A stretch of 64,000 nucleotides of DNA from Candidatus Omnitrophota bacterium (GCA_043814605.1 JBDRJV010000018.1:21545-85544); one strand, 5' to 3'. Counted from the first letter of the stretch, positions 12,341-63,568 are shown. Notes: generated from the letters alone by a model not told the origin. Program-made: numbers and translations.

Positions 12341-13017
12341 TTAAGAAAATTTATTATTTTTTGCACAAAATGCTTTCAAAGAAAAACGAACGCGGTGAAT
12401 ATTCTGCCGGAGTCTGGCAGCATACAGTGCGGGAGCAGGTTATTGCATTATGCGCCCAGAGTACAGGTAAATTGCTGGAAGTAGGCTGCGGGGAAGGGTT
12501 GCTACTGAGTGAAATAGCCAAATTAAATCATAACCTTGAAATTCACGGCATAGATATCTGGGATGAGATATTGGAAAGAGCCCAAGAGAGATTTAAAGCT
12601 GGTAATATTCAAGGGGTAAAATTACAGCAAGCGGATGCAGCAAAATTACCTTATGCCGATAGATATTTTGATGTGGTTATTTGCATAAATGTTTTTTTTA
12701 ATTTGCCCAGCGATACAATATTCCGGGCTAGTTTAAAAGAAATATCCCGTGTGTGTAAAGAAAATGCAATTTTTATTTTTGATATTCGCAATTGCCTGAA
12801 TCCATTGCTTTATTTTAAATATAAATTAGCCCGTTTTTATGATGAAACCGTAGCAAATTTACCTTTAAGGACTTATAATTTTTCTAAAGTGCAAAAAAAT
12901 TTAGCGGAAAATGGATTCTCAATCTTAAAAAAAATAAATATTGGTTTTCCGCGCAATCAATTTTCGCCGATTTTTGTTATTAAAGCTAAGAAAGAGAAAA
13001 ACAAGGTAATCGTATGA
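12337..13017 (+). CDS. Class I SAM-dependent methyltransferase
   Basis: LLEVGCGEGLLLSEI motif I. ATGA overlap with the upstream gene. Confidence 0.7.
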   Translation: MIKKIYYFLHKMLSKKNERGEYSAGVWQHTVREQVIALCAQSTGKLLEVGCGEGLLLSEIAKLNHNLEIHGIDIWDEILERAQERFKAGNIQGVKLQQADAAKLPYADRYFDVVICINVFFNLPSDTIFRASLKEISRVCKENAIFIFDIRNCLNPLLYFKYKLARFYDETVANLPLRTYNFSKVQKNLAENGFSILKKINIGFPRNQFSPIFVIKAKKEKNKVIV

Positions 13018-15982: not shown

Positions 15983-16066
15983 GAAATAACAGGTTAGGAA
16001 ATTAGTTGGGTGATGCTAGATGCTGGAACCTTGATTCTAAATCCTAAATCCAAGAATAGGCCTTAA

Positions 16067-16262
16067 GTGACACTTTTTTTAATTTAAATATTTTTTATCC
16101 TAAAACATTTTGGATTTTTGCATATAGTGTCTCGTATTTTTTCGCACCGGAACACTCGTTGGGCGATCCGTGTTCGCTCTTGAGGCGATATTTACTTTTT
16201 TAACCTCAAACCATGCCCGCTCACACTACTCAACGTCCGGTTTTGAATAAATATTCGCCATA
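16067..16262 (+). repeat. Copy A of a duplicated ~200-nt intergenic element (copy B at 25325-25527), with a promoter-like -35/-10
   Basis: Shared blocks: GACACTTTTTT, AATTTAAAT, CTCGTTGGG...CGATCCGTGTTCGCTCTTGA, and CCTCAAACCATGCCCGCTCA.ACT.CTCAACGTCCGG.TTTGAATAAATA. Upstream (G/T)TGACA is followed 16-17 nt later by a TAtttt/TAAATT -10-like box. Confidence 0.6.
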
Positions 16263-16466: not shown

Positions 16467-17861
16467 ATGAAAAATTACAAATTAATAAGTTTTTTATTGG
16501 TTTTAGTTTTCGTGTTTGGTTTTGGGATAGTATCTTTGCTTGCGCAAGTTGCCGATAACCTTACACAAACTGATCTTGCCGGGGAGTTGTTTAGCACTCC
16601 TGTGCCAATGAATAATTATTATTTTGCTAAACAGGCAGTAGTAACCTTTGGGGCTAAGTGGAGGGGGATACCGCAAACCCGTGAAGAACTTGAGGATATG
16701 GTTTGGCAGGAATTAGTTTTTTCTTTTGAGGCCTATCGCCGGGCGATTGAAGCAAGTGAGGATGAGGTAGATGCAGAAATCGAGAAGATCTTAACCGCGA
16801 ATAAAGTTGATTTTAGCTGGCGTACAGATAAAGAAAAATTTCAGAATTGGACAAAAGATACACTCAGATGTACAATTGAAAGTTTTAAGAATCAAATGGC
16901 GCATCTTGTTAAACTAGAAAAACTGAGAAATGAAGTTCTGGACAGTATCAATCCGGAAGTTACAGAAGAAGAGGCATATCAAAAATTTTTAAATGAATAC
17001 AATACTTTACTTGTAGAATTAAGAGAATTTGTGGATATTGATGAAGCTGAAAAATTTTATCAAGCTGCGCTTAAAGAAGTTACGGAAAAAGATCAAGAAC
17101 AATTAATTTGGCAGGATTTAATATATAGCGATGAGGTTTTTAAGCGTAAAATCGAAATTAGCGATGAAGAATTTGATAAAACCATTTCGTTTCTTTTGAG
17201 AGATAAAGAAGCACGTTTTAAATGGCAAGAAGATGCAGAAACTTACACCGCCTGGGTAAAAGAAAATTTTGATTTAAGCTTAGATGATTTTCAAATTTTA
17301 ATTTTGCAGCTTAGAACCGTGGACAAACTAATAGAAGAAATTTTTCTGGGCAATCAGCCACAGGTAGAGATAAGTCAATATCAAAACCTTTTAGATGAAT
17401 CAATCTCTATTAATCAAGCATATGAAAGATTTATTGAAGAAAGACAGGTGCCGGATCAAAATATTTTCAAATTTAAAACATTTAATGAAGCCGAAGATTT
17501 TTATGAAAAAATTAATCGGGTAGCTGGATTTTGGGAAGAAGAAAAGAGAAAACAACCTAAAGAATTTAAGCAGCCAGGGTTTACAGCTTTAGATTTTTTA
17601 ATTAATATGTGGGGTTTTCGCCAAGTCGATGCCGATAAAATGATAGATAAAGAGATTGGCAGCTATTATCCTCCGGCACCGATATATAAAGGGTATGGGG
17701 TGTTTAAAATCCTAAAAATCAGAAAAGCTGATAAATCAGAATATCCTGAGCGCAAAGATTCATATTTTGAAAAAATGAAATCTATTAAAAAATATCAGGG
17801 ATTTCAGGATTGGGCAATTGCGCTTAAAGATAAGGCCAATATTAAAGTTTATATTAAATAA
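16467..17861 (+). CDS. Periplasmic SurA/PpiD-like chaperone with a degenerate parvulin-like C-terminus
   Basis: N-terminal signal/anchor (ISFLLVLVFVFGFGIVSLLA), then a long acidic helical region. The C-terminal PIYKGYGVFKILKIRKA resembles the parvulin core. Confidence 0.4.
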   Translation: MKNYKLISFLLVLVFVFGFGIVSLLAQVADNLTQTDLAGELFSTPVPMNNYYFAKQAVVTFGAKWRGIPQTREELEDMVWQELVFSFEAYRRAIEASEDEVDAEIEKILTANKVDFSWRTDKEKFQNWTKDTLRCTIESFKNQMAHLVKLEKLRNEVLDSINPEVTEEEAYQKFLNEYNTLLVELREFVDIDEAEKFYQAALKEVTEKDQEQLIWQDLIYSDEVFKRKIEISDEEFDKTISFLLRDKEARFKWQEDAETYTAWVKENFDLSLDDFQILILQLRTVDKLIEEIFLGNQPQVEISQYQNLLDESISINQAYERFIEERQVPDQNIFKFKTFNEAEDFYEKINRVAGFWEEEKRKQPKEFKQPGFTALDFLINMWGFRQVDADKMIDKEIGSYYPPAPIYKGYGVFKILKIRKADKSEYPERKDSYFEKMKSIKKYQGFQDWAIALKDKANIKVYIK

Positions 17862-17923
17862 AATCCTGTTAAAATTATCGGTTTTCCCGGCTTTAAATAA
17901 TACTTTAACCAAAGTCTTTTTAA

Positions 17924-19540
17924 TTGAGGAGTTTTAATTTTGTGCAAACTGAAAAATTGGTCCTCGAAAATAAGATTAATATTTATAACGAACAACTTGA
18001 GAAAAATAAAAAATTAGAAATTAAAATGATCGGCAACTCTATGCTGCCGTTTTTAAAAAACGGTCAAGTTGTTCTGATTAAGCCCGCTCAAATAACCGAT
18101 GTGAAAACCGGAGATATTGTGCTTACCTGTTTTGAAAACCGTTTGCTTTGCCACCGGGTTTTTAAAAAAAATAAATATAGTTTTAGGACAAAGGCAGATG
18201 CTTTTCTAAAACTAGACCCGATAATGACGAAAGCTAATTTAATGGGCAAAGTTGTGGCCTATAAATTTGGTGAGAATTATATTCGGGTGGATAAAAATTT
18301 TTCCCGCTTGCTAGGAATAATAATTTCGCGGTTTTCACTGTTTATGGCTTATTTTTATCCAGTTTTACGTTTTATTAAACGCATGATTGCGGCCAATAGA
18401 AAAAATAATGGAAAATCTCTGGATGATTTAATTTTTTGTTTGCTTACCCCCCACAGTTTAAATGAACCAAGAAAAATATCTCAAGTTTTAGAAAATATAG
18501 AAAGTAATAAAAATTTTGCGTTGGATTTTCTGACTAAAATTCATCAAAATGGAATCAGCGGAGTTATTTTCTATAATCTAAAAAATAAAAAGTTACTTCC
18601 CGTATTGCCGGAAACTATAGTGTCTGAGCTTAAAACAGATTATTTAAATAATTCCGGCCGGGCATTATTTATTGAAAAAAGTTTAACACAACTGATCAAT
18701 CAACTAAATCAGGAAAATATTGATGTGCTTTTAATCCGTGGAATTGATTTTATGGTTAATTTATATCCCGAACCAGGTATGCGGGCAATGAGTGATATTG
18801 ATATTGTGATTAAAAGTGAGGATTTATTGCAAGTAGCAGATGTTTTTAAAAGGCTGGGATATGCTAATCCTCAGGGTTATCTGTATTTATTTTCGCGTGA
18901 TAATCTGCATTATGATATACATCTTGATTGGGCGGGGTTTTGGCGCATTGCTTCTAGAAATGTCAATATTGGCATAAAGAATAAATCAGTCTGGCAAAGA
19001 GCTAAATGTTTTAGCCGGGAATTAACACATATCAGGACATTAGATGATTGTGATTCTATTTTAGCCTGCTGTGCTCATCTGCAGGAACATTCCTATAAAA
19101 GAATAATTTGGTTTTATGATCTGGCGTTATTGCTTAATAAAGAAAATTTTAACTGGAATCAGTTAATGGAACGATCAGAAGAATTTAATCTGAAAAAAAC
19201 ATTATTTTTTGTGCTGAAATATTTACAAAAATTTAATTTTATTCTGGTTCCTGATCCTATTACTGAAGAACTGGATAAACTTAAATTGAATTTTTTTGAA
19301 CAAAAATCATTAAAAATGCTGCAGGCGAACAAAAAGGAATTACTGAGCGGAGAACTTTTACAGTTATTTTCGCTACCTAGTTTTAGCCAAAGGCTTAAAA
19401 GTATTTATGAGACGATTTTTATTCGGGAAAAAGACTTTTCCCAAGCTGGCAAAAAAATTACATTTTTGGATTATATTCTGTGGTTTTTCCGGATACTAGA
19501 GTATAGTATTAAGAAAATAAGCATTATTTTTAGAAAGTAA
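17924..19540 (+). CDS. Two-domain protein: N-terminal S24/S26 (LexA/signal-peptidase-like) peptidase domain plus nucleotidyltransferase-fold domain
   Basis: GNSMLPFLKNGQVVLIKP resembles the SPase I/S24 Ser motif (GDSMxPtl). Residues ~290-320 (RAMSDIDIVIKSEDLLQVADVFKRLGY) give the GS...DxD nucleotidyltransferase signature. The likely true start is the GTG at 17942, preceded by the RBS GAGGAG. Confidence 0.5.
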   Translation: MRSFNFVQTEKLVLENKINIYNEQLEKNKKLEIKMIGNSMLPFLKNGQVVLIKPAQITDVKTGDIVLTCFENRLLCHRVFKKNKYSFRTKADAFLKLDPIMTKANLMGKVVAYKFGENYIRVDKNFSRLLGIIISRFSLFMAYFYPVLRFIKRMIAANRKNNGKSLDDLIFCLLTPHSLNEPRKISQVLENIESNKNFALDFLTKIHQNGISGVIFYNLKNKKLLPVLPETIVSELKTDYLNNSGRALFIEKSLTQLINQLNQENIDVLLIRGIDFMVNLYPEPGMRAMSDIDIVIKSEDLLQVADVFKRLGYANPQGYLYLFSRDNLHYDIHLDWAGFWRIASRNVNIGIKNKSVWQRAKCFSRELTHIRTLDDCDSILACCAHLQEHSYKRIIWFYDLALLLNKENFNWNQLMERSEEFNLKKTLFFVLKYLQKFNFILVPDPITEELDKLKLNFFEQKSLKMLQANKKELLSGELLQLFSLPSFSQRLKSIYETIFIREKDFSQAGKKITFLDYILWFFRILEYSIKKISIIFRK

Positions 19541-19547
19541 AAACCCT

Positions 19548-20396
19548 ATGGGAAAAATATCAATTCAAATTGCCGGAATAAAAATATTAATAATATCAGA
19601 AAACCAAGATCTGATCGAAGGGGTAAAAACCAGCTATTCAATGTTTCAAGTGTGTAATGATCAGCAATATTATTTAAAAATAAATATTACTCTTGATCCG
19701 GTATTAAATCAAGAGAATCAAATGCAAGAAATTTGCCTAGAGAAAGACAACCTTATTTTTAGGCTTAAAGCTGCGGATTTTAGAAGCACAGTTAATTTTA
19801 AAACCAAAACTATTGATGCCCGGATTAGTTCTCAAGCCGGGGCGGTAAGTCTTTTTTTAAGAGTGGTATTCTCGTTAATTCTGTTAGAAAATAATGGATT
19901 CTTAATTCATGCGGCTGGCTTTTGCGATGCGCAAGGAAAAAGCTGGGTTTTTGCCGGTCCATCAGAAAGCGGCAAAACCACTTTGGCCAAATGGGCGGCG
20001 GCAAATAATTATAAGGTATTGAGTGATGAATTAGTGGCTATCCGGAAAATTGACGATCAATATGTTCTGTTTTCCACGCCTTTTAACGGCGAATACAGTG
20101 GACAAATTACTAATTTTCAAGTGGATTTAAAGAATTTATTTTTTCTGGGGCAAAAAATTAAAAGCCAATGTAAAAGGCTCAAAAAATTAGATTGTTTTTT
20201 AAATTTACTAAAAAATGTTTTTTTCTTCAATCGGCAGATTCAAGAAAATCAATTGATGATTAATTTAATGCAGGAATTATCAGAAAGAGTTTGCGCTTAT
20301 CAGATAAATTTGTTTAATCAAGATATCGAAAGGATTATTCATGCCACAAGATCAGATTCTAATACGCAACAAAGAAGCAGCCTGGCAAGAGGTTGA
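19548..20396 (+). CDS. HprK-related kinase (HPr kinase C-terminal-domain-like, P-loop)
   Basis: HAAGFCDAQGKSWVFAGPSESGKTTLA matches the HprK/P C-domain Walker A context. Confidence 0.55.
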   Translation: MGKISIQIAGIKILIISENQDLIEGVKTSYSMFQVCNDQQYYLKINITLDPVLNQENQMQEICLEKDNLIFRLKAADFRSTVNFKTKTIDARISSQAGAVSLFLRVVFSLILLENNGFLIHAAGFCDAQGKSWVFAGPSESGKTTLAKWAAANNYKVLSDELVAIRKIDDQYVLFSTPFNGEYSGQITNFQVDLKNLFFLGQKIKSQCKRLKKLDCFLNLLKNVFFFNRQIQENQLMINLMQELSERVCAYQINLFNQDIERIIHATRSDSNTQQRSSLARG

Positions 20397-20652
20397 GGAT
20401 AATATTGTTGTGATTACCCAGCAGACAAAAAAGATCCATGTTTTGTCAGGCTGCGGCTTAATGCTTTGGCAGAGGTTGGAACAATCTCAGACAAAACAAG
20501 ATTTATTACAGGCAATTTTGGATGAATATGAGGTAGAGCCTGCCCAAGCCCAAGCAGATTTAGATAAATTTTTAGAGGAAGTAATAGCTAAAGATATTAT
20601 TAGACAACAGACAACAGATAAAAAACTAAAACAAAAACAAAAACGAAAATGA
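20341..20652 (+). CDS. PqqD-family protein (RiPP recognition element-like)
   Basis: 103 aa. The W...IHVLSGCGLMLWQRL...DLLQAILDEYEVEPAQAQADLDKFLEEV pattern is typical of PqqD / peptide-chaperone family proteins. Confidence 0.6.
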   Translation: MPQDQILIRNKEAAWQEVEDNIVVITQQTKKIHVLSGCGLMLWQRLEQSQTKQDLLQAILDEYEVEPAQAQADLDKFLEEVIAKDIIRQQTTDKKLKQKQKRK

Positions 20653-20717
20653 CAATAGACATAAAATTACAGGTATTGGGCTAAAAACAAGAAATATTTG
20701 TTTCTAAAATTTTCTGT

Positions 20718-20756
20718 AAGAAAATTTTAGTCTGTGGTCTATGGTCTATGGTCTGG
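20718..20756. repeat. AT-hairpin plus 'NGTCTRT' heptad-repeat element (related copies at 14358-14393 and 51647-51695)
   Basis: TAAAATTTTCT-gta-AGAAAATTTTA hairpin, then AGTCTGT GGTCTAT GGTCTAT GGTCTGG. Copy C has AAAATTTTCTT..AAGAAAATTTT, then AGTCTAT AGCCTAA GGTCTAT TGTCTTT GGTCTTA. Copy A has five heptads: GTCTGT AGTCTGT TGTCTAT TGTCTGT GGTCTGT. Confidence 0.55.
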
Positions 20757-21777
20757 AAAAGTGGATATTTGGACAAAGGTAAAACATACACTTAAGCAAA
20801 AACATATTCCGATTGAAGTAATTTTGGAATTAACTAAGCGCTGTAATTTAAAATGCTGTCATTGTTATAATATTAAAGACAGCTGCCAGTTGAGTTTTAA
20901 ACAAGTAAAAATAATTTTTAAACAATTACGTGATGCCGGCACTTTATTTTTAGTTTTAACCGGAGGCGAGGTATTTTTGCATCCGGATATTATGGAGATT
21001 TTAAATTTAGCGAAAAATATGAATTTTAATTTGAAAATTTTCACAAATGGCACCCTGATTACAGAAGAGATTGCGAGAAATTTAGCAAAGATAATGCCGA
21101 GTGAAATTGGAATCAGTATTCAAGGGGCAAGGGCGAAAACACATGATTTAATTACTGGCGTTAAGGGCTCATATGAGAAATCAATTCAGGCAATAAAGAT
21201 ATTAAAAGCTAAGAGTATTAGTGTAAATCTTAAAACAACGCTCATGCAGCAGAATTTTTCTGAGTTTAAAGAAATCATTAAATTAGCCGCGGATTTAGGA
21301 ATAGTTTATATTATGGATCCGGTTATTGCGCCGCGGGATGATGGATCCTGTGATGTTTTAGCTTATCGATTGACGGATGCACAATTAGAAGAATTTTATC
21401 AGTTTGAAGTTGAACTAAAAGGGTATATCTATGAGCCTGAAGAAAAAGAATATTTTTGTCAGGCGGGATTTACTTTTGGCAGTATATCTGCAAACGGGGA
21501 TGTGTACCCGTGTATACAATTACCGCATAAACTGGGAAATATTTTTGAGCAGGATTTTAGCGGGATTTGGCAGAATGCAGAATTTTTAAAAAAGATGCGC
21601 CGCAGTAATGCTTATGATAATCCGGAATGTCAAAGTTGTAAGATTGCCGATGTTTGCACGCGGTGCCCGGGGCTGGCATTTTTAGAAGACGGCGATGCTT
21701 TTGGGAAATCCGCTGTGGCTTGCATGCACGCGCAAGTCTACAAAAAACTGGGTGATAGGGTGAAGGGTGAAGGGTGA
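20734..21777 (+). CDS. Radical SAM enzyme with C-terminal SPASM domain (peptide-modifying or anSME-like maturase)
   Basis: CNLKCCHCY (CxxxCxxC) near the N-terminus. GGE motif (LTGGEVFLHPD). C-terminal Cys-rich SPASM region (CQAGFTFGSISANGDVYPC...CQSCKIADVCTRCPG). The start is uncertain; the ATG lies inside a repeat element, and GTG 20761 is an alternative. Confidence 0.75.
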   Translation: MVYGLWSGKVDIWTKVKHTLKQKHIPIEVILELTKRCNLKCCHCYNIKDSCQLSFKQVKIIFKQLRDAGTLFLVLTGGEVFLHPDIMEILNLAKNMNFNLKIFTNGTLITEEIARNLAKIMPSEIGISIQGARAKTHDLITGVKGSYEKSIQAIKILKAKSISVNLKTTLMQQNFSEFKEIIKLAADLGIVYIMDPVIAPRDDGSCDVLAYRLTDAQLEEFYQFEVELKGYIYEPEEKEYFCQAGFTFGSISANGDVYPCIQLPHKLGNIFEQDFSGIWQNAEFLKKMRRSNAYDNPECQSCKIADVCTRCPGLAFLEDGDAFGKSAVACMHAQVYKKLGDRVKGEG

Positions 21778-21836
21778 ATTTATTTTACTCTCTACTTTCT
21801 GCTCGCTACTGATTCAAAATAAGGTATAATATAATT

Positions 21837-23789
21837 ATGCAAAATAAACTAATTCATAAACTAACCATCCAAATCATAATTATTGTTGTGATTATTGCCG
21901 GGGTTTTTTCTTTTTTAATTAATATGCAAACCAAGGAATTAGAAAAAAGAATTTCAGAAAAATCTGAACTTTTTTCAAAAATTTTAGGCGCACATTTAGA
22001 CAATATTATTGGCAATAATCTTATTGCTTATAATTCATTACAAGAGAAAGTCGAAAGGTTAATAGAGGGCAATAAAGATATTGAAGAGCTGATTATCATT
22101 GGCCCGGAAAAAATAGTTATTGCATCAAGTTCTGGCAGGAAAATCGGGGCATCTCCGGATATGCAATATATGGGGATTATTAACGAAGTAGTTCAGACAA
22201 AAAAATCCAAGGCAATTGTTAAATCTGATTTAGGCAAAGAATTAGTAATCCATTTTTTGCCAATTTTTTCTTCTGCGGGTAATGCGGATAATCTTATCGG
22301 AATAATGCAAATGAAAGCAAATTTTCCTTCCCAGCAGGGTGAATTGGTAACAGCACTGCGAAAAAACAGGAATTATTTTTTTAAAGAAGAAGCACTCCGC
22401 TTTGCTCAGGATCTATCCCGGGATTTAGAATTAGTTATGGCTGAGGTTAACAGAAATTCCGGATATTTAGACCGCTTAATTCAAAATATACTGGAAGATG
22501 CGGAAATTAAGGATATTAAATTATATTTGAAAGATCTGCAATTTCTAATCTCCGGAACCGGGCGTGATTCATACATTTCGCAGGATGATATCCAAAGAAA
22601 TTATTTTCGTGCGATGCAAGAGAAAATAACGTTCAAAGCTCAATATAAAAAACAAGGCCATTTAACTCAGTTTATCAGCCCGTTATTTCTCACAGTAGAC
22701 GGAAAACGTAAGGTAAGCGGTGCGGTAGGAATATTAATCTCTTTAGAACGTGTATATGATGTAATTAACACAAGGAGAAATTCTATTGTTTTGATGAGTT
22801 TTTTGATAATTTGCGCCTTTGTTTTAATTATTGGATTATTTTTTAGAAATTCAATTATTGCACCTTTAAAAAATCTAAGCAATATGAGCGCAAAAATCGG
22901 TAAAGGGGATTTCTCACAAAAAATAAGTATTAAGGGGACTGATGAAATCAGTGATTTAGGAAAATCATTTAATCAGATGTCAGACGAATTATTGCGTTCT
23001 AAAAAAGAAATTGAAGAGTGGAACAAAAAACTGCAGGAAAAAGTAAAAATAATCTCGAATGAATTAGAAGCCAAGCAGGCCCAGCTTATTGAATCAGAAA
23101 AAATGGCTTCTTTAGGTGTTCTTTCCAGCGGAATTGCCCATGAAATTAATAACCCCCTGGGAATTATCATTGGTTCAGTGCAGATGATTCTTAAGGAATT
23201 AAAGGAAAAACAAACCCTGGCTAATCCCCAACAGACAGAGGAATTGCTTAAAACTGTGGAAAATTATACGCGGCGCTGTTCGCATATTGTGAATAGTTTA
23301 TTGCAATTTGCTAATAAAAAACAAATGCAATTAATTGAGTCTGATGTGAATAAATCTGTAGAAAATGCTTTATTGTTCACGGAAAATCATATCAAGAAAA
23401 ATAATATTAATTTGATTCAATCCTTAGAAAAAGACCTTCCCCAGGTTTTAGCGGATCCCATAAATTTAGAGCAGGTATTTATCAATATTATTCTTAATGC
23501 GCAGATGAGTATGCCGGAGGGAGGGCAGCTGAAAGTTTCCACTGCGCTTGCGGGCAATAGGGTGATGGTAAGTTTTGAAGATACGGGTATGGGGATTGCC
23601 GCAGGGAATATGCATAAAATTTTCGAGCCGTTTTTTTCAACCCGTGAACCGGGTAAAGGTGCGGGGCTTGGATTATCGATAAGTTATGGTATTATTAAAG
23701 CACACAATGGGGATATAAAGGTAGAAAGTGCAGTGGGTAAAGGGACAAAGGTTACGGTGGAAATACCGATTAAAGAAAGAAAAGAGTAG
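21837..23789 (+). CDS. Sensor histidine kinase (membrane-bound, HAMP + HisKA + HATPase_c)
   Basis: Two TM segments flank a ~290-aa periplasmic domain. H-box SGIAHEINNPL. N/G boxes (IILNAQMSM...DTGMGI...GKGAGLGLSISYGI). Confidence 0.85.
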   Translation: MQNKLIHKLTIQIIIIVVIIAGVFSFLINMQTKELEKRISEKSELFSKILGAHLDNIIGNNLIAYNSLQEKVERLIEGNKDIEELIIIGPEKIVIASSSGRKIGASPDMQYMGIINEVVQTKKSKAIVKSDLGKELVIHFLPIFSSAGNADNLIGIMQMKANFPSQQGELVTALRKNRNYFFKEEALRFAQDLSRDLELVMAEVNRNSGYLDRLIQNILEDAEIKDIKLYLKDLQFLISGTGRDSYISQDDIQRNYFRAMQEKITFKAQYKKQGHLTQFISPLFLTVDGKRKVSGAVGILISLERVYDVINTRRNSIVLMSFLIICAFVLIIGLFFRNSIIAPLKNLSNMSAKIGKGDFSQKISIKGTDEISDLGKSFNQMSDELLRSKKEIEEWNKKLQEKVKIISNELEAKQAQLIESEKMASLGVLSSGIAHEINNPLGIIIGSVQMILKELKEKQTLANPQQTEELLKTVENYTRRCSHIVNSLLQFANKKQMQLIESDVNKSVENALLFTENHIKKNNINLIQSLEKDLPQVLADPINLEQVFINIILNAQMSMPEGGQLKVSTALAGNRVMVSFEDTGMGIAAGNMHKIFEPFFSTREPGKGAGLGLSISYGIIKAHNGDIKVESAVGKGTKVTVEIPIKERKE

Positions 23790-23859
23790 AGAGTAACGAG
23801 TAGAGAGAGAAAAAACAAAAACAATTATTCTCTCTACTATCTACTTGCTACTCGCTACT
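23784..23859. repeat. Palindromic 'GAGTAGAGAG / CTCTCTACTC' element between the kinase and regulator genes; one member of a dispersed family
   Basis: Arms AGAGTAGAGAGTAACGAGTAGAGAGAG and CTCTCTACTATCTACTTGCTACTCGCTACT surround an A-rich loop. Related copies lie at 21788-21810, 25275-25304, 25604-25643, 44036-44056, 44112-44121 and 51552-51567. Confidence 0.6.
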
Positions 23860-23860
23860 T

Positions 23861-25273
23861 ATGAAATGGAAAATTTCTATGAAGCAAGATCGAATACTAG
23901 TTGTTGACGATGAGCCGGGCATGCGGCAATATTTAAAAAAATTACTTACGGATAACGGGTATCAAGTTGAGATTGCGGAAAATGGGATTCAAGCGCTGGA
24001 AATGATTAATGAAAAAGTTCTGGATCTGGCACTGATTGATTTTAAAATGCCGGGGATGGATGGAATACAGCTTTTAGCTAAAATTAAGGCAGAGCATGAA
24101 CATGTGATTGTAATCATGATGACGGCTTACGGAACAATGGAAAGGGCAATTCAAGCGATGAAGTTAGGGGCTTATGATTATTTAAGTAAACCGTTTGAAG
24201 TTGATGCGATTTTATTGATAATTGAAAAAGCGCTTAAAACCAAAAGGCTGGAAGATGAGAATATTATTTTACGCAAAGAGCTTAAAAAAACCTATACTTT
24301 TGCGGATATTATTTCGGAAAATTCCCAGATGCAGCATATTTTTGAGATTATCCAGAAAGTAGCCCCGGCTAAAAGCACTGTCTTAATTCAAGGAGAAACC
24401 GGTACAGGTAAAGAGCTGATTGCCCGGGCATTGCATGCGTTAAGCCCGCGGAATCAAAAACCGTTCATTCCTGTGGATTGCGGGGCATTAAGTGAGAGTT
24501 TACTGGAGAGTGAATTATTTGGCCACATAAAAGGTGCGTTTACCGGAGCAACACAGGATAAAAAGGGGCTGTTTGAAACTGCAGACGGCGGCACAGTATT
24601 TTTGGATGAGATTGGGCATATTTCATTAGCTATTCAAGCTAAGTTATTACGTGTTTTGCAGGATGGCCAGATCAAACGCGTGGGTGAAGCAGCTTCACGC
24701 AGTGTGGATATCCGTCTTGTAGCAGCGAGCAATGAAGATATTGAAATGGGGATTAAAGAAGGCAAATTCCGCGAAGATTTATTTTATCGTTTAAATGTTG
24801 TACCGATTTTTGTGCCGGCTTTGCGTGAGCGTAATGAAGATATCCCGCTTTTAGTTGAGCATTTCATTCATAAGTACAATAATATTGAAAAGAGAAATAT
24901 TCAAGGCATTAGCCATGATGCTTTGAAAATGCTGATGTCTTTTTCCTGGCCGGGGAATGTAAGAGAGTTAGAAAACTTAGTACATAGAGCTGTGGTTATG
25001 GCAGATAAAGATAATATTGAAGTAATGGATTTACCTTTAAACGTAAAAACTTTGTCTGTTGCGGAAAGAAGGATAGATGCAAATCGTACGCTTGATTTTC
25101 GCAAAGCAAAAAATAATGCTTTAGCTGCATTTGAAAAAAGATTTTTAATTGAAAGTTTAATGCGCCATAAAGGCAATATCAGCCGCGCGGCAAAAGAAAT
25201 GAACTTAGACCGCAGAAACCTGCACCGCAAATTAAAGCAGTATAATATCACACCTAGCAATTATTTATCTTAA
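23861..25273 (+). CDS. Sigma-54-dependent response regulator (NtrC family: REC + AAA+ sigma-54 activator + Fis-type HTH)
   Basis: REC domain with D at [14 protein letters not shown]. Walker [15 protein letters not shown] motif ([12 protein letters not shown]). C-terminal [27 protein letters not shown]. Confidence 0.9.
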
Positions 25274-25324
25274 AAGTAGCGAGTAGCAAGAAGAGAGTAG
25301 AGAGAATGTGTTATCATGCAATAG

Positions 25325-25527
25325 TTGACACTTTTTTCATTTAATTTAAATTTTGTTTTTTACAGAAACTGTTTCGTATTTATTCATCCCGGAATTCTCG
25401 TTGGGTCCCAGCGAGACCCAACTTCGTTCGGCGATCCGTGTTCGCTCTTGAAGCTTTATTTATATTTTTTAGCCTCAAACCATGCCCGCTCATACTGCTC
25501 AACGTCCGGGTTTGAATAAATACTCAC
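25325..25527 (+). repeat. Copy B of the duplicated ~200-nt element, flanked by imperfect inverted 'AGTAGCGAGTAG...AGAGAGTAG' repeats (25275-25304 and 25604-25643)
   Basis: Direct sequence comparison with 16067-16262. Contains a 26-nt hairpin insertion (GTTGGGTCccagcgaGACCCAAC). The indel is not a multiple of 3, so it is non-coding. Confidence 0.6.
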
Positions 25528-25827
25528 CGATAATATCAACTATTAGCAATAAAATTTAAAACTGTTAATCTTTTTCAAGATAACATATATTGTTTTCTCG
25601 CTACTTGCTTGTGCTTTTAAGGATGCTACTCTCTACTCGCTACTAATTGATTTTTAACCAATTTGTGGTATACTTATTTATGTGTAAATATTGTCTCAAT
25701 GAGGCGTATTTTACACAATATTTTGGTTAATTTTAAAATTTTCTGAAACAGTCTTTTTATTTTACTCTGTAACATGTTTATTTTTAAATGATTAAGTTTT
25801 TGATAAATAAAATATTTTATTTTGTGT

Positions 25828-25843
25828 TGGCACGTTGATTGCT
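25828..25843 (+). promoter_or_regulatory. Sigma-54 (RpoN) -24/-12 promoter for the giant gene
   Basis: The sequence TGGCACGTTGATTGCT matches the consensus TGGCACG-N4-TTGCW exactly, with 10 nt between GG and GC. It lies 19 nt upstream of the ATG at 25862, downstream of an NtrC-type activator gene. Confidence 0.7.
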
Positions 25844-25861
25844 TAATATTAAGAGGTTATT

Positions 25862-28800
25862 ATGAGAAAAACAAATAAAATTCTAAAAATCATTGGTTTT
25901 ATTTTTCTGGTTATGGCAGTTATTCCAACCAGCGCGCAGGCGCGTTTAATTGTGCAAAAAGGCACGTCCACTATTGCTGCCGGGCAGACAACATATGTTC
26001 AGTCGATTAATGCTGTCAGCAGCCTTTCTAATGCTTTTGTGTTAATGTGGTCTACAGGAGACAGCGGGGCAAGTAATTCACAATATCATCAGGCCACTGG
26101 GGTGCTTACTTCTACCAGCCAGATTACATTTACGCGTCAGGGAACAACTGATGATTGCCGGATCGGCTGGTATGTAATTGAGGCAGAATACGGTGAGTTT
26201 GAAGTTGTAAAGAGAAATACCATAACTATCGGCACAACCGCAACTACCCAGGATGATGCGATTGGCGCGACTATTGACCAGTCACGTTCGTTTATTGTTT
26301 CTAATTCACGGATTGGAGGAAATGGCGGAACTGCTAATGCCTACAAGGGATATGCTACGACGCATTTTTTAAATGATACTACAATCCAGGCAGCCCGCGG
26401 GGTTTCGGGTACTTACACCACAATTGTAAGTTATGCTGTAGTGCAATGGTCTGCTGCTTCCGGGGTTACAGTGCAGTCAAAAGAACTAAGCGCTTCCATA
26501 GGTACTACTGAAGTAACTGATACAATTAACACAGCGGTAACTCCGGTGCAAACCTGGCTGTACGCAACGGCGCGGCATAATTCAAACGGGCTTTCACAGA
26601 CTGCGGTAAATACTTATTTAAAAGACGGAACAACTGTAGGTTTTAGCCGTTATACCGGTACTTATACCTCAGCCATACGCTGGTGGGCAATCCAATTTCC
26701 TGAAGGGGTTCCGGTACAGCGCCAGTCGCTTAGCGCTGCCAGCGGCGACCTTACAGAACCGGCAACATTAGCTTCCAATGTGACTATCGGCTATTCCTGG
26801 TCGGATAATTATAATGATTCCAATGGTACAGGTACAGCTTATCCCCGGCAGTCCTGGTATTCGCAGATTACTGCGGTTAATCAGGTAATAGCTACGCGTT
26901 ATTACAGCGGGCAGGCAGCAAACTTATCCATGCAGGCGATTGATACCAGTGCCTGGATCCCTCCATTAGTGACAATAACAATTACGCCGGATCCTTGTAA
27001 AGCAGTGGGTATTGGCGGGCTTGAAACCAAGCTTGTATTTAATCTGACTATGAATACATCTGTTGAACCGATTATAACCTATGACCCGCAAGGCGCAACC
27101 GGGCCTCAGGCTTGTACCGCAGGCACATGGTCAACGACAACATATGCTAATGATACATACACTGTTTACAATGATTACGAAATTAATGCTTCTACGGGTG
27201 ACGGTACTGCCGTAATCAGTGTTAGCGGAGCAAAAAGTGATTTAGGTATAACTATGTACCCGGATACTGATGATTCCTTTATTATAGATGCTACTGTCCC
27301 GAATAATCCGTCATATCCCTGCGGCAGTTGGGATTCCAGCAGTAAGACAGCCGCGATTCCGAATGATACCTGGCAGGAGATAGATAGCACGCCTTATTTT
27401 GAATGGACCGGAGCCAGTGACGGAGCTGGAACCGGAGTTAGCGGTTATTCTGTTTATTGGGGAAATTCCAGTATCGGCGAACCGGCAACTACTCAAGAAC
27501 AGTCTGCGGAAAATTATGATGTAGCTACTCCGGTAGATGACGGAATATATTATTTAAGGGTAAGGACATTTGATAATGCGGGAAATTACAGCGAGCCGGT
27601 TACAATATTTATTTTTCAGTACGATGCTTCTGCCCCAATTAATCCTGATGTTCCGGCAAATTCCTGGGAGTCAAATTTAAAACTAACTCCCATAACTAAT
27701 GATACCTGGCAAAAGGATGATAATACACCGTATTTTGAATGGACTGGCGCTAATGATTCCGGCGGTTCTGGGGTAAGCGGTTATTCTGTTTATTGGGGAA
27801 CAGACACTAACGGCGAGCCCGGGCAGACACAGCAGCAGTCAAATATGAATTATCAGGTAAGTACCCCGGCAGATACAAATACTTATTATTTGAGAGTAAG
27901 AACTTTTGATAATTTTAATCATTATAGTAATCCTGTAACTTTATTTATATTTAAATATGATGATACACAACCCACAAATCCCGTACAGCCTTGCAGCGGT
28001 TGGGATTCTCCTTCTAAAGGAAACATGCTTTCCAATAATAAGGCGCAGGGGTTTGGCCAGACGCCGTATTTTGAATGGACTGGTGCCTCCGATGCTAGCG
28101 GCAGCGGCGTGAGCGGTTATTCTATTTACTGGGGTATGGATTCAGAAGGCGAACCAGGCTTAACCCAAGAGCAGGCTAATGCGGATTATGAAATCAGCAC
28201 CCCAACAGGTGAAGATACGTATTATTTAATTGTCAGGACATTTGATGCTTTGGGTAATTACAGCGAGCCGGTTACTTTGTTTACTTTTATTTACGATGAA
28301 ACTAAACCCACCGTAACAATAACTGTTAGCCCGGATCCGGCCGGACACAGCGCAGCCGGGGAGTTGGAATTTAAACTTGTTTTTTCTGAATCCATGGATA
28401 TTGCGGTAACCCCGAGTGTAAGCTATGACCCGCAAGGCGCAACCGGCAACCAGACTGTAGATACAAATGGTGCCTGGTCAACCACAACTTATACTAATGA
28501 TACTTACACAGTTTATAACAGCAATGTGATTAACAGTACTACTGGTGACGGAGCCGCAGCAATAAGTGTGAGCACAGCTCAGGATGTTGCGCTAAATACA
28601 ATGTTAGCGGATACCAATGATAGTTTTACGATTGATACGCTAGTGCATCATTTTGTGATTGCTCATGACGGGATGGCAGTAATAAATATTCCGGAAACTT
28701 TAACCATTACGGCTAAAAACAGTACGAATTGTACAGTGTTAGATTATACCGGCCAGGTAACATTAAGCACTTTAAACGAAACCGGAGAAATAACCTGGGC

Positions 28801-31800
28801 TTTAGTCAGCGGAGCCGGAGTGTTTAATGATAACGGCGCAGGCCAGGATACCGCAACCTACACATTTGCTGCTGGCGATAACGGAGTAGTTACAATTCAA
28901 ATAACAGATACGAACGCGGATAATTTGGATGTGGAAGTAACAGACACGATAAATACTGATGATGATACTGAAGGAAACTTAGTTGTCTCTACTATACCTT
29001 TAGGCTGGTTTGTGATCTCGCATGATACGGCGGCAATTGCCGGGACTCCGGAAACAATCACGGTTACAGCCAAAGATATCAACGGCCAGACAAAAACCGA
29101 TTATGCGGGAACAATTAATTTAGATACCAATGGTACAGCAACCACAATTACCTGGGGACTGAGCTCTGGCTTAGGAATATTTGCTGATGGCGGTGCGAGT
29201 CTGGATACTGCTGCTTATACTTTTCATGATAATGATAACGGTGTAGCAGTATTTACAATAAAAGATACTAAGGTGGAAACAATTAATATCTCGGTAGAGG
29301 ATAACGGAAAGACTGATAATGATACAGAGGGAAATTTAATAGTTAGCCCGGGTGCGGTCAATAGTTTTATTATTGCTCATGACACACAGGCTACAGCAGG
29401 GATTGCGGATAATGTCAGCATTACGGCTTATGATACGTATAGCAATATTAAAACAAATTATACCGGTACAATAACTGTGGATACAAACGGCACAACCACC
29501 ACAATTACCTGGGCAAATGTTAGCGGCCTGGGTATGTTTAATGACGGCGGGGCTGGCGTGGATACAGCTACTTATACTTATGCTGCCGGAGATAATGGAA
29601 CAGTTACCTTAAGCATTACGGATACCAAAACCGAAAGCATTGATATTGATGCCAGTGCCAGCGGCAAGACTGATAATGACAGTGAAGGTAATATGCTCAT
29701 CGTGCCGGCAGCTATTGATTATTTTGTGATCAGCCATGACGGTGCAGCTTCTGCCGGTGTGTCAGATCAGATGAGTGTGACAGCCAAAGATGCTTACGCA
29801 AATATCAAAACCAATTATACGGGCACAATTACTTTGGATACTAACGGAACAGCCACAACTATTGATTGGGCATTGGTCAGCGGCAGCGGCGTATTCAATG
29901 ATAACGGCGCAAGTGTGGATACCTCAACTTATACTTTTGATGCTGCAGATAACGGTACAGCAATTTTTTCTATTCTAGATACTACGCAGGAGTCTATAAA
30001 TATTTCTGTCATCGGCGATACTAAAACCGATGATAACACAGAAGGCGATCTTAATGTTGGGCCGGCAGTGATCTGGCTATTTGACATTACGCATGACGGG
30101 AATGCTAATGCCGGGGTTTATGATGATGTGACGATTACAGCCAAAGACAGCTTGGGCAATATTATGACAAATTATACCGGCACAATAACTGTGGATACAA
30201 ATGGAACAGCTTCGGCGGTTTCCTGGGCTAAAGTTACCGGCCTGGGAACATTTAATGACGGCGGGGCCAGTGTTGATACTGCTACCTATACATATGCATC
30301 CGGTGATAATGGTGTAGTAGTGTTAAAGATCAAAGATAATGTGCAGGAATCAATAAACATCAGTGTTAGCGGTGATGGCCGGGTAGATAATGATACTGAA
30401 GGTAATTTAATTGTGGGACTTCCTTTATTAAGCCATTTTGTGATTGCTCATGACGGGGCTGCTGCAGCCGGTACTGCAGAAAATATTATTATTACCGCAA
30501 AGGACACAGTCGGCAATACGAAAACCGATTATACCGGTACAATTACTGTGGATACGAACGGAACTGAAACAGCAATTACCTGGGCTAAGATTACCGGAGC
30601 CGGCGTATTTGTAGATGGCGGAGTAGATGCAGATACAGCTACTTATGCCTATGCTGCCGGCGATAACGGAGTCGTGACCCTGAGTATTAATGATACAAAG
30701 GTAGAAACAGTAAACATCTCCATAACCGGAGATGGGAAAACTGATGATAATACTGAAGGGGATTTAGCGGTCAGCCCCGGAGCTTTGGATCATTTTAAAA
30801 TTGTGCATGACAGCTCAGGTATTGTGAATATCGCGGAAATGGTAACTGTATCAGCTCGTGATAGTAATGATAATATTAAAACAAATTATACCGGAACCAT
30901 AACTTTAGATACAAACGGCACAGCTACGGCCATTACTTGGGGCTTACAATCTGGCAGCGGTGTATTTACGGACGGCGGGGCCAGTGTGGATACGGCAACT
31001 TATACTTTTAATGCTGAGGATAATGGAGCGGCTGTATTCCGGGTAACTGATTCTATTGCTCAGACAATTAATATTGCGGTATTCGGAGATACGAAACCTG
31101 ATGATAATACTGAAGGTAATTTAGTGATTGGTGCGGCCGGCACGCAGACTACAGGCTGGTTATCTCCCACTGCTAATACCGGTGGTTTTACTAATCCGAC
31201 TGAGGCCTATGCTGATGGCGGTAGTTATGCGTATTCTCGCAGCGGCTATGAGCATCAATATAGTAATTATGGATTTTCCTTTCCTTATAATGCGATAATT
31301 ACCGGAATTCAGATAAGATTAGATGCCTGGGGGCAAAGAAACGGATATTCTTATTCCGGGGAATTATCTTGGGATGCAGGTACAAATTTTACCTCCAGCG
31401 GCTGGAGTACTCCGGCCATGACAACAAGCCAAGTTACTTATCTGAGCGCAAATGATCTTTGGGGCCGGACAACCTGGTCTAAGACCGAGCTGGCTAATGC
31501 TAATTTTAGGGTGAAATTAATTGCAACTGGTTCTACTCTCAGAAACAATTATTTGGACTGGGTGCCAATAAATGTTTCTTATGAGATCGGCGCCAATGCT
31601 GCGGCAAATAATGTTACGACAGCTGATGTGGGAGTAGGCAGCAGCGGAAACCTGATCCTGAATACAACTGTTACTAATAGCGCTAGTGTGCAGGATACTG
31701 TGACCTCGATTACTGTTAACAATACAGGTACAGCAACAGACGCGGAAATCACATCTGTAAAACTTTATTATGATAGTAATAATTCCAATGATTATACTCC

Positions 31801-34800
31801 TGGTGTGGATACACAGATCGGATCCGGAACTTTTTCATCTGGCGCAAAAACTTTTTCCGGTTTAAATATCAATATTGCGGCCAGCGGCGGCAATGAATAT
31901 TTCTTCGTGATTATGGATGTGGCCAGCTCTGCGGTTAGCGGCCATACCTTGGATGCAGTAATCCCGGCTAACGGTATCACGCTGACAAAAACAGGCACGA
32001 TTGAACCCACCCAGATTAATTCCAGTGGTAATAGAATAATTAAAATAATGCTGGATCATTTTGTCATCAGCCACGACGGTGCAGGTATTGCCGGTTCAAA
32101 CGAGACCGTAACTGTAACTGCAAAAGATGCTTTTAATAATACGAAAACTGATTATACCGGTCAGATCACCTTGGATACAACCGGTACTCCAGGGACAATA
32201 TCCTGGAGCTTGCAGAGTGGTAATGGTGTGTTTAATGATGGCGGAGCTAGTGTGGATACTGCAACCTATACCTTTAATGTCGCGGATAACGGTACAGTAA
32301 CTTTTAGCGTAAATGATACATTGTCTGAAACTTTTAATATCAGTATTAGCGGTGATGGAAAAACTGATGATAATACAGAAGGTAATTTGGTTGTGGCTCC
32401 GGCGGGAATAGATCATTTTGTGATTAGTCATGATACTGCAGCAATTGCCGGAATAGCTGAACAGGTTTCTGTAACAGCAAAGGATGCTTACAGCAATACC
32501 ATAACAAATTATGCTGCACAGATAACTTTAAATACTACTGGAACAGCTAATACAATTACCTGGGCTTTGATTTCCGGATTCGGTACATTTGTTGACGGCG
32601 GTGCCAGTGTAGACACAGCAACTTATACATTTTCTCCCAGCGATAATGGCCAGGCTGTGTTTACAGTCATGGATAATACTGCAGAAACAATCAATATCTC
32701 TGTAATCGCTAACGGAAAGTTTGATGATGATACTGAAGGCAATCTGGTAGTGGCTCCGGCAGGCATTGATTATTTTGTGATTAATCATGACGGAACCGCG
32801 ATTGCCGGAACGCCAGAACAAGTAACAATCACAGCCAAAGATGCTTTGGGAAATACCAAGATTGATTATACCGGTCAGATCACCGTGGACACTACGGGCA
32901 CAGCTACAACAATTACTTGGGCTTTACAAACTGGAAGCGGTGCTTTTGTTGAAGGCGGGGCTTCGGTGGATAGTGCTACCTACACTTATAATTCCGCGGA
33001 TAACGGCGTAGTAGTGCTGACTTTAAATGATACTAAAAAAGAGACAGTCAATATATCTGTTAGTGGCGATACCAAAACTGATGATAATACCGAAGGTAAT
33101 TTGGTTGTTTCCCCGGGTGCAATTGATTATTTTGTAATCAGCCATGACGGTGTAGCAACAACCGGGGTTTCGGAAAGTGTCGGGATCACGGCTTATGATG
33201 CGAATGATAATATTAAAGATGATTATATTGGCCAGATAACCATAGATACCAACGGTACACCCACAACCATAACCTGGACATTGGTTAGCGGTGACGGAGA
33301 GTTTGTTGACAGCGGTGCTTCTGATGATACGGCAACTTATACTTATGTCCTGGGAGATAATGGAACAGTTAGCTTAAGTATTGTTGATTATACCTCAGAG
33401 ACAATCAATATTTCAGTAACCGGTGACGGCAAGACTGATGATAATACTGAAGGAGATCTGCAGATCGCTTCTTCAGGAATTGACCATTTCCTAATATCCC
33501 ATGACAACAACGCACTGGCGGGCACGCCTGAGAATATTACGATTTATGCTAAGAACGCGAATAACGATACATTGCAGAATTATCAAGGCCAGATCACAAT
33601 TGATACTAGCGGAACACCGTCGGCGATTAGCTGGATTTTGGTTTCTGGAAACGGTATTTTTGCTGACGGCGGAGTGGGTATGGACACAGCTACATACACA
33701 TTTACAGATAGCGATGATGGTACAGTGGTTTTATCAATTATAGATACAGCAGAGGAAACTTTGAATATCTCTGTTAGCGGAGAAGGCAAGACTGATGATA
33801 ATACCGAAGGCAATTTAGTAATAAACCCAGTTGGCTTACATCATTTTACAATCAGCCATGACGGAGCTGCTTTTGCCGGGGTAGCGGATGCTGTGACAAT
33901 TATTGCCAAGGATGCCAATAACAATACAGTAACAAATTATACCGGGCAAATAACTGTAGATACGAATGGCACAGCTACGGCAATTACCTGGGCTAAACAA
34001 ACCGGCAGCGGAAGTTTTGCTGAAGGCGGGCCAAGTGTAGATACTGCGACATACACTTTTGTATCCGGAGATAATGGACAATGCGTTTTAACAATCACGG
34101 ATAATAAAGTGGAAACCATTAATATTTCTGTTTCCGGCAGCGGTAAGAGCGATGATAATACTGAAGGAAATCTTATTATCGGTCCTGGAACAATTGATCA
34201 TTTTGTGATCAGCCATGATTCTAGCGCAGTGGCCGGGATAGCGGATAATGTGACGATTATTGCTTATGATGCCTACAATAATATTAAAACAAATTATACC
34301 GGGCAAATAACTTTAGATACTAATGGTACAGCCGCAACTATTACCTGGGCTAAAGTTACCGGAGCCGGAGTATTTGTGGACGGCGGCGCCAGCGTAGATA
34401 CAGCAACGTATACCTATGTTGCTGGTGATAACGGCCAATGTGTTTTAAGTATTAATGACACCACAGCGGAAACTTTAAATATTTCTGTTGCTGGGGACGG
34501 GAAAAATGATAATGACAGCGAAGGCAATTTAGTTGTCATGGCAACCACTGTGGATCACTTTGTGATTATGCATGACAATAGTGCTGAGGCTGGAGTAGCA
34601 GAAAGCGTGAGTATTACGGCTTATGATGCCTACAATAATATTAAAACTGATTATACCGGACAGATAACCGTAGATACTAACGGCACAGCAACAACTATTA
34701 CCTGGGCTAAGGTAAGCGGTGCGGGAAGTTTTGTGGACGGCGGCGCCAGCGTAGATACAGCTACTTATACTTATGCCAGCGGTGATAACGGAGTCGTGGG

Positions 34801-44035: not shown

Positions 44036-44153
44036 AAGTAGCGAGTAGAGAGTAGCACCTTTACGGGTACGAGCAAGTAGCCCTCCTACGCTAAAGCTTC
44101 GGAGGGTAAAAAAGTAGAGAGCAAAAACAAAAAGTTTTTAAATAAAAAAAATA

Positions 44154-44234
44154 ATGTAGGGGGCGATCCCTGTGTCGCCCCGTGTAAATAATAAATATCA
44201 TTAATTTTGTAGGGGCGGTCCTTGTGCCCGCCCG
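44154..44234 (+). other. Two tandem copies of a GC hairpin unit TGTAGGGGCG(A/G)TCC(C/T)TGTG(T/C)C(G/C)CCCG upstream of the propeller gene
   Basis: GGGGCGAtccctgtgTCGCCCC and GGGCGGtccttgtgCCCGCCC each form 7-bp GC stems. The second sits 32 nt upstream of the ATG at 44266. Confidence 0.4.
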
Positions 44235-48842: not shown

Positions 48843-48866
48843 ATATTTCTACCAATCATTTATAAC

Positions 48867-62312: not shown

Positions 62313-62328
62313 AAAAGTTAATAAAAAA

Positions 62329-63534: not shown

Positions 63535-63568
63535 AATTTAAATTCGGGGAAGTTTTAGTGATTAAGTT

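Follow-up and report, generated by a model that had tools for sequence, protein, structure and literature searches.

A predicted sigma-54 enhancer-dependent switch at a giant adhesin-like gene of a Candidatus Omnitrophota bacterium

Comparison with described sigma-54 systems and giant genes

Sigma-54 promoters are silent without an activator, and the described two-component systems closest in design to the one reported here are NtrB/NtrC (with glnAp2), AtoS/AtoC and ZraS/ZraR. The present locus lies in a 64,000 nt stretch of DNA from a Candidatus Omnitrophota bacterium (GCA_043814605.1 JBDRJV010000018.1:21545-85544), here called the window, from whose start all coordinates are counted; it comprises genes for a membrane sensor kinase and an NtrC-family activator, a predicted enhancer, a sigma-54 (−24/−12) promoter and an 18-kb gene for a predicted adhesin-like protein. 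It shares with the three described pairs the domain order of kinase and activator, the GAFTGA motif and a Fis-type helix-turn-helix (HTH), and with NtrC-type systems the presence of tandem dyads about 110–170 bp 5′ of a GG-N10-GC promoter. Comparison with 12 related loci makes it quite likely that a classical sigma-54 enhancer-dependent switch controls this giant secreted protein. The mechanism is textbook; what sets the locus apart is its application to Omnitrophota giant genes, which the literature searched does not report, a candidate operator code, and short sigma-54-like genes that in related loci are linked to a cassette upstream of the kinase.

The locus differs from the NtrC, AtoC and ZraR systems in its target, which is a single 18-kb adhesin-like gene and no metabolic operon, and from AtoS, NtrB and ZraS in a sensor domain without known family. 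The form of its dyads, GYGYA-N6-TRCRC, is to our knowledge also different from NtrC, NifA and AtoC sites. The best-scoring NCBIfam models of the activator are AtoC (486 against an equivalog cut-off of 714) and NtrC (438 against 559), followed by PrsR (TIGR02915; 416 against 502.6), and ZraR scores 410 against 760; the kinase is matched best by AtoS, whose 215 bits fall far short of the cut-off, 646. All scores fall under their cut-offs, so the pair belongs to none of the AtoS/AtoC, NtrB/NtrC and ZraS/ZraR equivalog families.

A first-pass annotation of this DNA, made from the sequence alone, had likened the locus to PrsK/PrsR-type control (TIGR02916/TIGR02915), and there is indeed a likeness, in that a sigma-54 two-component pair lies beside genes for surface or secreted proteins in a glycan-synthesis neighborhood. 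With TIGR02915 only the third-best match of the activator, and that below its cut-off, this likeness is one of family level. Identity with PrsK/PrsR was rejected, as the comparison fails on several counts: the activator score just given, the absence of PrsK from the 25 best NCBIfam models of the kinase, the lack of a PEP-CTERM tail on the target (the giant protein ends in ...GSDSGKIYSFKVVQ, where neither a PEP motif nor a helix or basic tail is seen), and the lack of any exosortase family match among the scanned open reading frames (ORFs) of the window.

Omnitrophota stand out for their giant genes, to which a role in attaching to host cells or attacking them has been ascribed. These genes have been described beside type II/IV secretion-like loci (West-Roberts et al. 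2023, bioRxiv 10.1101/2023.11.21.568195; Seymour et al. 2023, PMC10066038; Nielsen and Lui 2026, bioRxiv 10.64898/2026.06.07.730766). The gene studied here resembles them in being a very long ORF with few annotated domains, in its secretin, PilM/N/O, GspE/F-like and pilin neighbors, and in the mobile DNA found at its orthologs; at 6057 aa, however, it is smaller than the size classes analyzed in those three studies. It is also not of the ‘Archaeovorin’ type, which in West-Roberts et al. (2023, bioRxiv 10.1101/2023.11.21.568195) combines many transmembrane regions with a divergent SecA DEAD domain, since the giant protein is hydrophobic only at its signal peptide and has no SecA_DEAD match. Sigma-54, two-component regulators and promoters go unmentioned in all three studies, and full-text literature searches for Omnitrophota together with sigma-54 or rpoN returned no title or abstract about this locus.

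The regulators, the promoter and the predicted enhancer

In this AT-rich window (32–36% GC) the genes concerned follow one another on the plus strand, from the upstream cassette (16467–21777) through the kinase (21837–23789) and activator (23879–25273) genes, the predicted enhancer and the promoter to the giant gene (25862–44035). Pfam searches and reading of the sequence confirm the kinase, activator, promoter and 18-kb ORF where the first-pass annotation had placed them, and the 588 nt between the activator stop codon (ending at 25273) and the ATG of the giant ORF (25862) agree closely with its figure of 590 nt. Comparison loci were collected by activator-based scans of genome and metagenome collections and by exact look-ups of activator homologs. 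They comprise 12 further distinct loci with an orthologous activator of 53–71% identity (L026, L028, L029, L001, L003, L004 and L105–L110), whose sources, wherever named, are metagenome-assembled genomes of Omnitrophota or of the Planctomycetes-Verrucomicrobia-Chlamydiae (PVC) group; the window locus and these 12 relatives are referred to below as the 13 loci. The succession of kinase, activator, TGGC-N7-TTGC promoter and giant secreted-protein gene recurs in all 12 of these related loci, which strongly bears out the core of the earlier suggestion of a self-contained regulatory module. An orthologous kinase gene lies immediately 5′ of the activator gene in L001, L003, L004 and L105–L110.

The sensor histidine kinase is a 650 aa membrane protein in which two transmembrane segments (TM1 and TM2) enclose an extracytoplasmic sensor domain, about 285 aa long, for which a Pfam scan finds no family. 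HAMP (8.8e-15), HisKA (1.2e-12) and HATPase_c (2.2e-22) domains follow; its H-box reads SGIAHEINNPL. The activator is an NtrC-family sigma-54 enhancer-binding response regulator with Pfam domains Response_reg (3.4e-33), Sigma54_activat (7.7e-71), AAA_lid_14 and HTH_8 (1.6e-10). Its receiver is intact, with acidic pocket and phospho-acceptor Asp; the Walker A (GETGTGKE) and GAFTGA motifs can be read in the AAA+ domain, and a Fis-type HTH with its recognition helix is C-terminal, so that all the hallmarks of the NtrC type are present. GAFTGA is conserved in 12 of the 13 loci, the exception being GSFTGA in L029. The activator ORF could begin at an upstream ATG (23861–25273), but M7 at 23879 is the likely true start, because the translation from there shows 100% identity to the 464 aa of an NCBI protein (P0001, annotated as ‘sigma-54 dependent transcriptional regulator [Candidatus Omnitrophota bacterium]’).

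The promoter, TGGCACGTTGATTGCT (25828–25843, plus strand), has its GG and GC elements 10 nt apart within an exact TGGCAC-N5-TTGC(A/T) consensus and ends 18 nt 5′ of the giant-ORF ATG (the first-pass annotation had put it at 19 nt). Exact TGGCAC-N5-TTGC occurs once in the 64 kb, both strands included, where 0.12 is expected, and among 100 shuffled versions of the window 12 contained one or more such matches, so that the count by itself is weak evidence. When up to two mismatches are allowed with the GG and GC fixed, TGGCACGTTGATTGCT is the only intergenic match in the window that is oriented toward a gene start. A motif of the form TGGC(A/C)(C/T)-N5-TTGC(T/A) lies directly 5′ of the giant gene in all 13 loci, with TGGC and TTGC invariant, and in an alignment of seven of them TGGCA and TTGC are invariant in surrounding DNA that is essentially unalignable. 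This comparative conservation is, among the sequence evidence, decisive for a promoter beyond chance. The motif could otherwise be taken for a chance match in AT-rich intergenic DNA, with the gene driven from a sigma-70 promoter; the shuffles show that such matches do arise, and sigma-70-like hexamer pairs are more numerous in the region than expected (16 vs 7.8). These hexamer pairs, however, are not conserved in the orthologs, and were for that reason set aside (among them one at 25710–25739 that overlaps the right dyad of the predicted enhancer), whereas the sigma-54 motif holds its place in 13 loci whose surroundings have diverged beyond alignment; the chance reading looks already refuted by this conservation, and we regard it as extremely improbable.

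With the C of the GC element (25842) as −12, the usual sigma-54 spacing predicts transcription to start at 25852–25856 (+1 at about 25854 ± 2). This position falls within the Shine-Dalgarno sequence AAGAGG (25851–25856) and would leave a leader of about 8 nt; an unusually short leader, of about 10 nt, had been anticipated, and the spacing of promoter and ATG bears this out. The ATG itself is secure, because the N-terminus MRKTNKILKIIGFIFL aligns with MKKTAKIFTIMGFIFL in L026. The interval between the T that follows the GC element and the ATG measures 18 nt here vs 37–66 nt in L026, L028, L003 and L004, the four orthologs in which it can be measured; their predicted leaders are 27–56 nt long, that of L026 being 38 nt. 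The short predicted leader is thus peculiar to this genome, which compared with L026 has apparently lost about 30 nt by deletion. In L001 the leader between promoter and giant gene (12790–12990) contains several tandem units of about 30 nt (agtatgctaagaaatatgaaaaagg...), and the start codon is hard to place.

The predicted enhancer, or upstream activating sequence, is the 35-bp element TGTGTAAATATTGTCTCAATGAGGCGTATTTTACACA (25682–25716), which was recognized by motif count, alignment, spacing and co-variation. It consists of two 16-bp dyads of the form GYGYA-N6-TRCRC, GTGTAAATATTGTCTC (25682–25697) and GAGGCGTATTTTACAC (25701–25716), which are 19 bp apart and, counted from the predicted +1, have their centers near −164 and −145. 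Such positions are normal for enhancers of NtrC-type systems, and the predicted sites fall within the 80–200 bp from the promoter at which dyad activator sites are looked for. The pattern GTGTAAA-N15-30-TTTACAC has this single match in the window, where 0.01 is expected. The double dyad and the promoter are the two conserved islands of the seven-locus alignment. It is found in all 13 loci, its 3′ end being 109–112 bp from the promoter in ten of them; one locus has a distance of 118 bp, and two have 125 bp. The AT-rich spacer between enhancer and promoter (25717–25827) is conserved in length and not in sequence, and this constancy suggests DNA looping with a fixed helical phase.

A hairpin in RNA or DNA, acting as a terminator or stabilizer of the activator operon, would be another way to read a 35-bp palindrome. 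The element lies just 3′ of the activator gene in the insert-free loci, TGTCTCAATGAGGCG followed by a T-run was flagged as terminator-like in a consensus scan, and folding of the element as single-stranded DNA gives z = −3.1. The stem is nevertheless weak (−6 kcal/mol), and the inner hairpin is not conserved in L026, where the left dyad by itself is a near-perfect palindrome (18 bp; it is near-perfect in L003 as well), which fits two dimer sites better than one hairpin. Moreover, it is the distance of the element to the promoter that is fixed, while its distance to the activator stop codon varies between about 10 bp and over 5 kb. A hairpin in place of a protein-binding enhancer therefore seems quite unlikely to us.

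The half-sites of the double dyad vary together with the activator. In the six loci whose recognition helix reads RRN(L/F)H(R/K)K the half-sites are GTG / C(A/T)C / CAC, and in the seven with RRNLQ(R/K)K they are GCG / CGC / CGC; G at the inner-left half-site is found in none of the six His-type and in six of the seven Gln-type loci. This is the pattern to be expected if the activator reads the double dyad, and we take it as suggestive. It bears on the alternative that the promoter is a genuine sigma-54 promoter while the adjacent pair serves elsewhere, for example at the operon of its own radical-SAM cassette, the giant gene being activated by a different enhancer-binding protein. That alternative draws on the apparent co-transcription of kinase and activator with the upstream cassette, on the presence in Omnitrophota genomes of more than one activator of this class (K07713 and K07714 are listed; see below), and on the fact that the pairing of activator and double dyad comes from sequence comparison. 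Against it stand the co-variation of the half-sites with the recognition helix of the adjacent activator, the adjacency of the activator gene to the enhancer, promoter and giant gene unit in 13 loci despite recurrent insertions at the junction, and the outcome of the window scan (up to two mismatches), which found no sigma-54 promoter 5′ of the cassette; a separate activator for the giant gene is, in our judgment, unlikely.

Under the favored reading, a sigma-54 switch operated by the adjacent pair, the kinase would sense an extracytoplasmic cue through its 285-aa domain and phosphorylate the receiver Asp of the neighboring activator, dimers of which would bind the two 16-bp dyads (25682–25716) and assemble into an AAA+ ring. 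The ring would loop over the AT-rich spacer of about 110 bp, and its GAFTGA loops, with ATP hydrolysis, would open the closed complex of sigma-54 holoenzyme at TGGCAC-N5-TTGC (25828–25842), so that transcription of the 18-kb gene would begin near 25854. Several observations weigh against this reading. The 118- and 125-bp enhancer distances of three loci are not whole helical turns off 111, and the His/Gln co-variation, being suggestive and no statistical proof, may stem from one evolutionary event. A start within the Shine-Dalgarno sequence and a leader of about 8 nt are awkward for translation, the more so as other genes of the genome have ordinary Shine-Dalgarno sequences; translation may proceed from the 5′-terminal AGG, or upstream read-through may contribute. 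Finally, no rpoN gene was found in the 64-kb window, either with an RpoN-box regular expression or by tblastn with the sigma-54-like protein of L108.

Sigma-54 is nonetheless presumably present in this genome, with indirect support from Kyoto Encyclopedia of Genes and Genomes orthology (KO) lists for the phylum, from the conserved GAFTGA motif, and from sigma-54-like genes in L108–L110. We take KO entry K03092 to be rpoN. It is listed for both Omnitrophota genomes whose KO tables were examined (Seymour et al. 2023 source data, PMC10066038), and the same tables list K07713 in both genomes and K07714 in one.

In L004 a 48-bp block containing the enhancer is duplicated perfectly (48/48 bases) around an inserted gene. 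The copy that bears the promoter stays with the giant gene; where a sigma-54 promoter would be expected 3′ of the first copy, there is none.

Reconstitution in Escherichia coli is often feasible for sigma-54 systems, and the circuit should thus be testable without culturing the organism. The locus would offer a conserved and portable set of control parts (kinase, activator, 35-bp operator and promoter class), an operator whose proposed recognition code can be read directly (His with GTG, Gln with GCG), and, in the sensor domain of the kinase, a starting point for identifying the host or prey cue.

The giant protein, the upstream cassette and short sigma-54-like genes

The giant gene (25862–44035, plus strand) encodes 6057 aa, which were analyzed by domain, repeat and fold searches. 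The protein begins with a Sec signal peptide (MRKTNKILKIIGFIFLVMAVIPTSAQA) and has no other strongly hydrophobic segment and no recognizable anchor. An immunoglobulin (Ig)-like repeat of 119 aa occurs in it 27 times, in three blocks, and it also has a Golvesin_C domain, weak matches to CARDB and, at the C-terminus, a PQQ-like beta-propeller. An AlphaFold2 model of the repeat, with the 27 copies given as the alignment, is all-beta with a predicted local distance difference test (pLDDT) score of 95.4, and its best Foldseek matches (E 1e-4 to 1e-3) are filamin, S-layer SbsC, intimin and cohesin domains; PDB sequence searches with the giant protein returned only designed propellers, matching its C-terminus. 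Because of the signal peptide, the long tandem array of Ig-like repeats (the combination by which Ig-repeat adhesins are recognized), the all-beta model and the fold matches, the giant protein is predicted to be an Ig-repeat fibrillar surface or secreted protein of adhesin-like character. Its orthologs are 60–64% identical in L001, L003 and L026 and 52% identical in L004. The giant gene (26001–44000) has 37–45% GC, mostly 40–45%, vs 32–36% in the flanking genes, which could reflect its Gly/Ala/Thr-rich repeats or a foreign origin.

A gene for a BamB-like propeller lies 3′ of the giant gene. Two GC-rich hairpins are also found 3′ of it, GGGGCGATCCCTGTGTCGCCCC (44160–44181) and GGGGCGGTCCTTGTGCCCGCCC (44212–44233), which are similar to each other and both lack a T-run; they may represent a further family of repeats or terminators of an unconventional kind. 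Genes resembling those of type IV pili and type II secretion systems flank the locus at 45887–51486 (minus strand) and 60573–63940 (plus strand), and this set comprises a secretin, PilO, a 627-aa PilM-PilN fusion, a ParA/MinD-like ATPase, GspE/PilB, GspF/PilC and a pilin with an N-methylation motif.

Upstream of the kinase gene lies the cassette (16467–21777, plus strand), which was defined by domain searches and has the same gene order in L001, L003, L004 and L105–L110. Its products are a secreted protein of 464 aa, an S24-peptidase/NTP_transf_5 fusion, a protein at the position of ScmC, a PqqD-like protein and a radical SAM/SPASM enzyme; the cassette resembles the SynChlorMet type, and in the window and in those same nine loci it precedes the kinase and activator genes. 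It probably forms the front of the same operon as these two genes. Because the cassette overlaps or abuts the kinase gene in orthologs, a peptide-maturation system is apparently co-transcribed with the giant-gene regulators.

Short sigma-54-like genes lie within the cassette 5′ of the kinase in L108 (607–1632), L109 (1–794) and L110 (1–933). They encode a Sigma54_DBD domain and the RpoN box ISRRTVSKYRKEL, and score 113 bits with TIGR02395 against a cut-off of 277. The family to which they belong has members of 341–407 aa in about 36 clusters, mostly annotated as hypothetical, and is split from canonical RpoN by a wide E-value gap. The DNA-binding domain is the only one that Pfam recognizes in it, with neither a core-binding nor an activator-interacting domain found; a family profile aligns with sigma-54 structures only over the C-terminal 160–200 residues, and a Region-I-like match at the N-terminus is insignificant.

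One may speculate that the module is an Omnitrophota switch for sensing contact or prey, which would turn on the giant adhesin only at encounter with a host, and that the short sigma-54 paralog of L108–L110 makes it a private circuit and no client of the housekeeping RpoN. We hold this idea tentatively and consider it doubtful. Under it, the radical-SAM/SPASM/PqqD cassette could mature a peptide signal or modify the adhesin.

Insertions and repeats at the activator–enhancer junction

Between the activator gene and the enhancer lies a non-coding stretch of about 380 bp (25274–25660) that is absent from L026 and L028, where the activator stop codon is 10–50 bp from the enhancer and there is no insert. 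In it, inverted AGTAGCGAGTAG-type repeats (25275–25305 and 25597–25644) bracket a repeat element of about 200 nt (25322–25530), a second copy of which is present in the same orientation at about 16066–16262 (88% identical over 105 nt). The two copies lie 200–330 nt 5′ of an operon start, that of the cassette and that of the giant gene, respectively, and both begin with a sigma-70-like TTGACA-N16-TAAATT; the element was not found in any other fetched locus. As RNA the insertion folds with z = −5.4 and contains no canonical terminator. Against Rfam, nothing in the window passed the gathering thresholds, and what matched in 25250–25900 was at chance level. Consensus folding of the two 200-nt copies was uninformative, and a small ORF on the minus strand of the element was rejected, as it meets an early stop in the second copy.

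The first-pass annotation had noted the repeat at 25325–25527, which is real and has its second copy, and had proposed that the activator sites lie within it. At 300–500 bp 5′ of the promoter it is within enhancer range, and the copy 5′ of the cassette operon (16066–16262) could in principle join the two operons in one regulon. The repeat and its flanking repeats, however, are absent from L026, L028 and every other fetched locus, all of which keep the promoter and the double dyad, and unrelated inserts occupy its position elsewhere: L001, L003 and L109 have IS200-like Y1 transposase genes there, L105 a Zn-ribbon gene, L110 a tetratricopeptide repeat (TPR) gene and L004 a SecA_DEAD gene. A role of this repeat as the activator's target thus appears very unlikely, and that part of the proposal gives way to the conserved double dyad; from the comparison of loci, the repeat-bearing stretch of about 380 bp is best regarded as a lineage-specific insertion outside the switch.

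The junction between activator and enhancer appears as an insertion hot spot across the loci, and the enhancer–promoter unit is never interrupted. In L004 (11396–16700) the gene inserted between activator and giant gene encodes 1612 aa with SecA_DEAD and SecA P-loop domains.

The AGTAGCGAGTAG-type repeat, which is roughly heptad-periodic, has nine copies in the window vs 0.06 expected. They are located at 21799–21810, 23792–23859, 25275–25305, 25597–25644 and 44037–44055, all in intergenic DNA bordering the radical-SAM, kinase, activator and giant genes; inverted pairs, which would form long hairpins, are frequent among them. These repeats look like the REP (repetitive extragenic palindromic) type. 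The spacer between the kinase and activator genes (23790–23860) is itself an imperfect long inverted repeat of AGTAGCGAGTAG-type units, and it seems to be a lineage-specific REP-like insertion, because the orthologous genes are 0–60 nt apart or overlap. The contigs L002 and L027, from a related species, break at sequence similar to the AGTAGCGAGTAG-type repeat. The IS200-like Y1 transposase genes, repeatedly inserted into the module, lie at 11497–12348 in L001, 11462–12352 in L003, 7463–8335 in L109 and 5054–5938 in L107, and those of L001 and L003 are flanked by AGCAATGCTTGAAATGT repeats.

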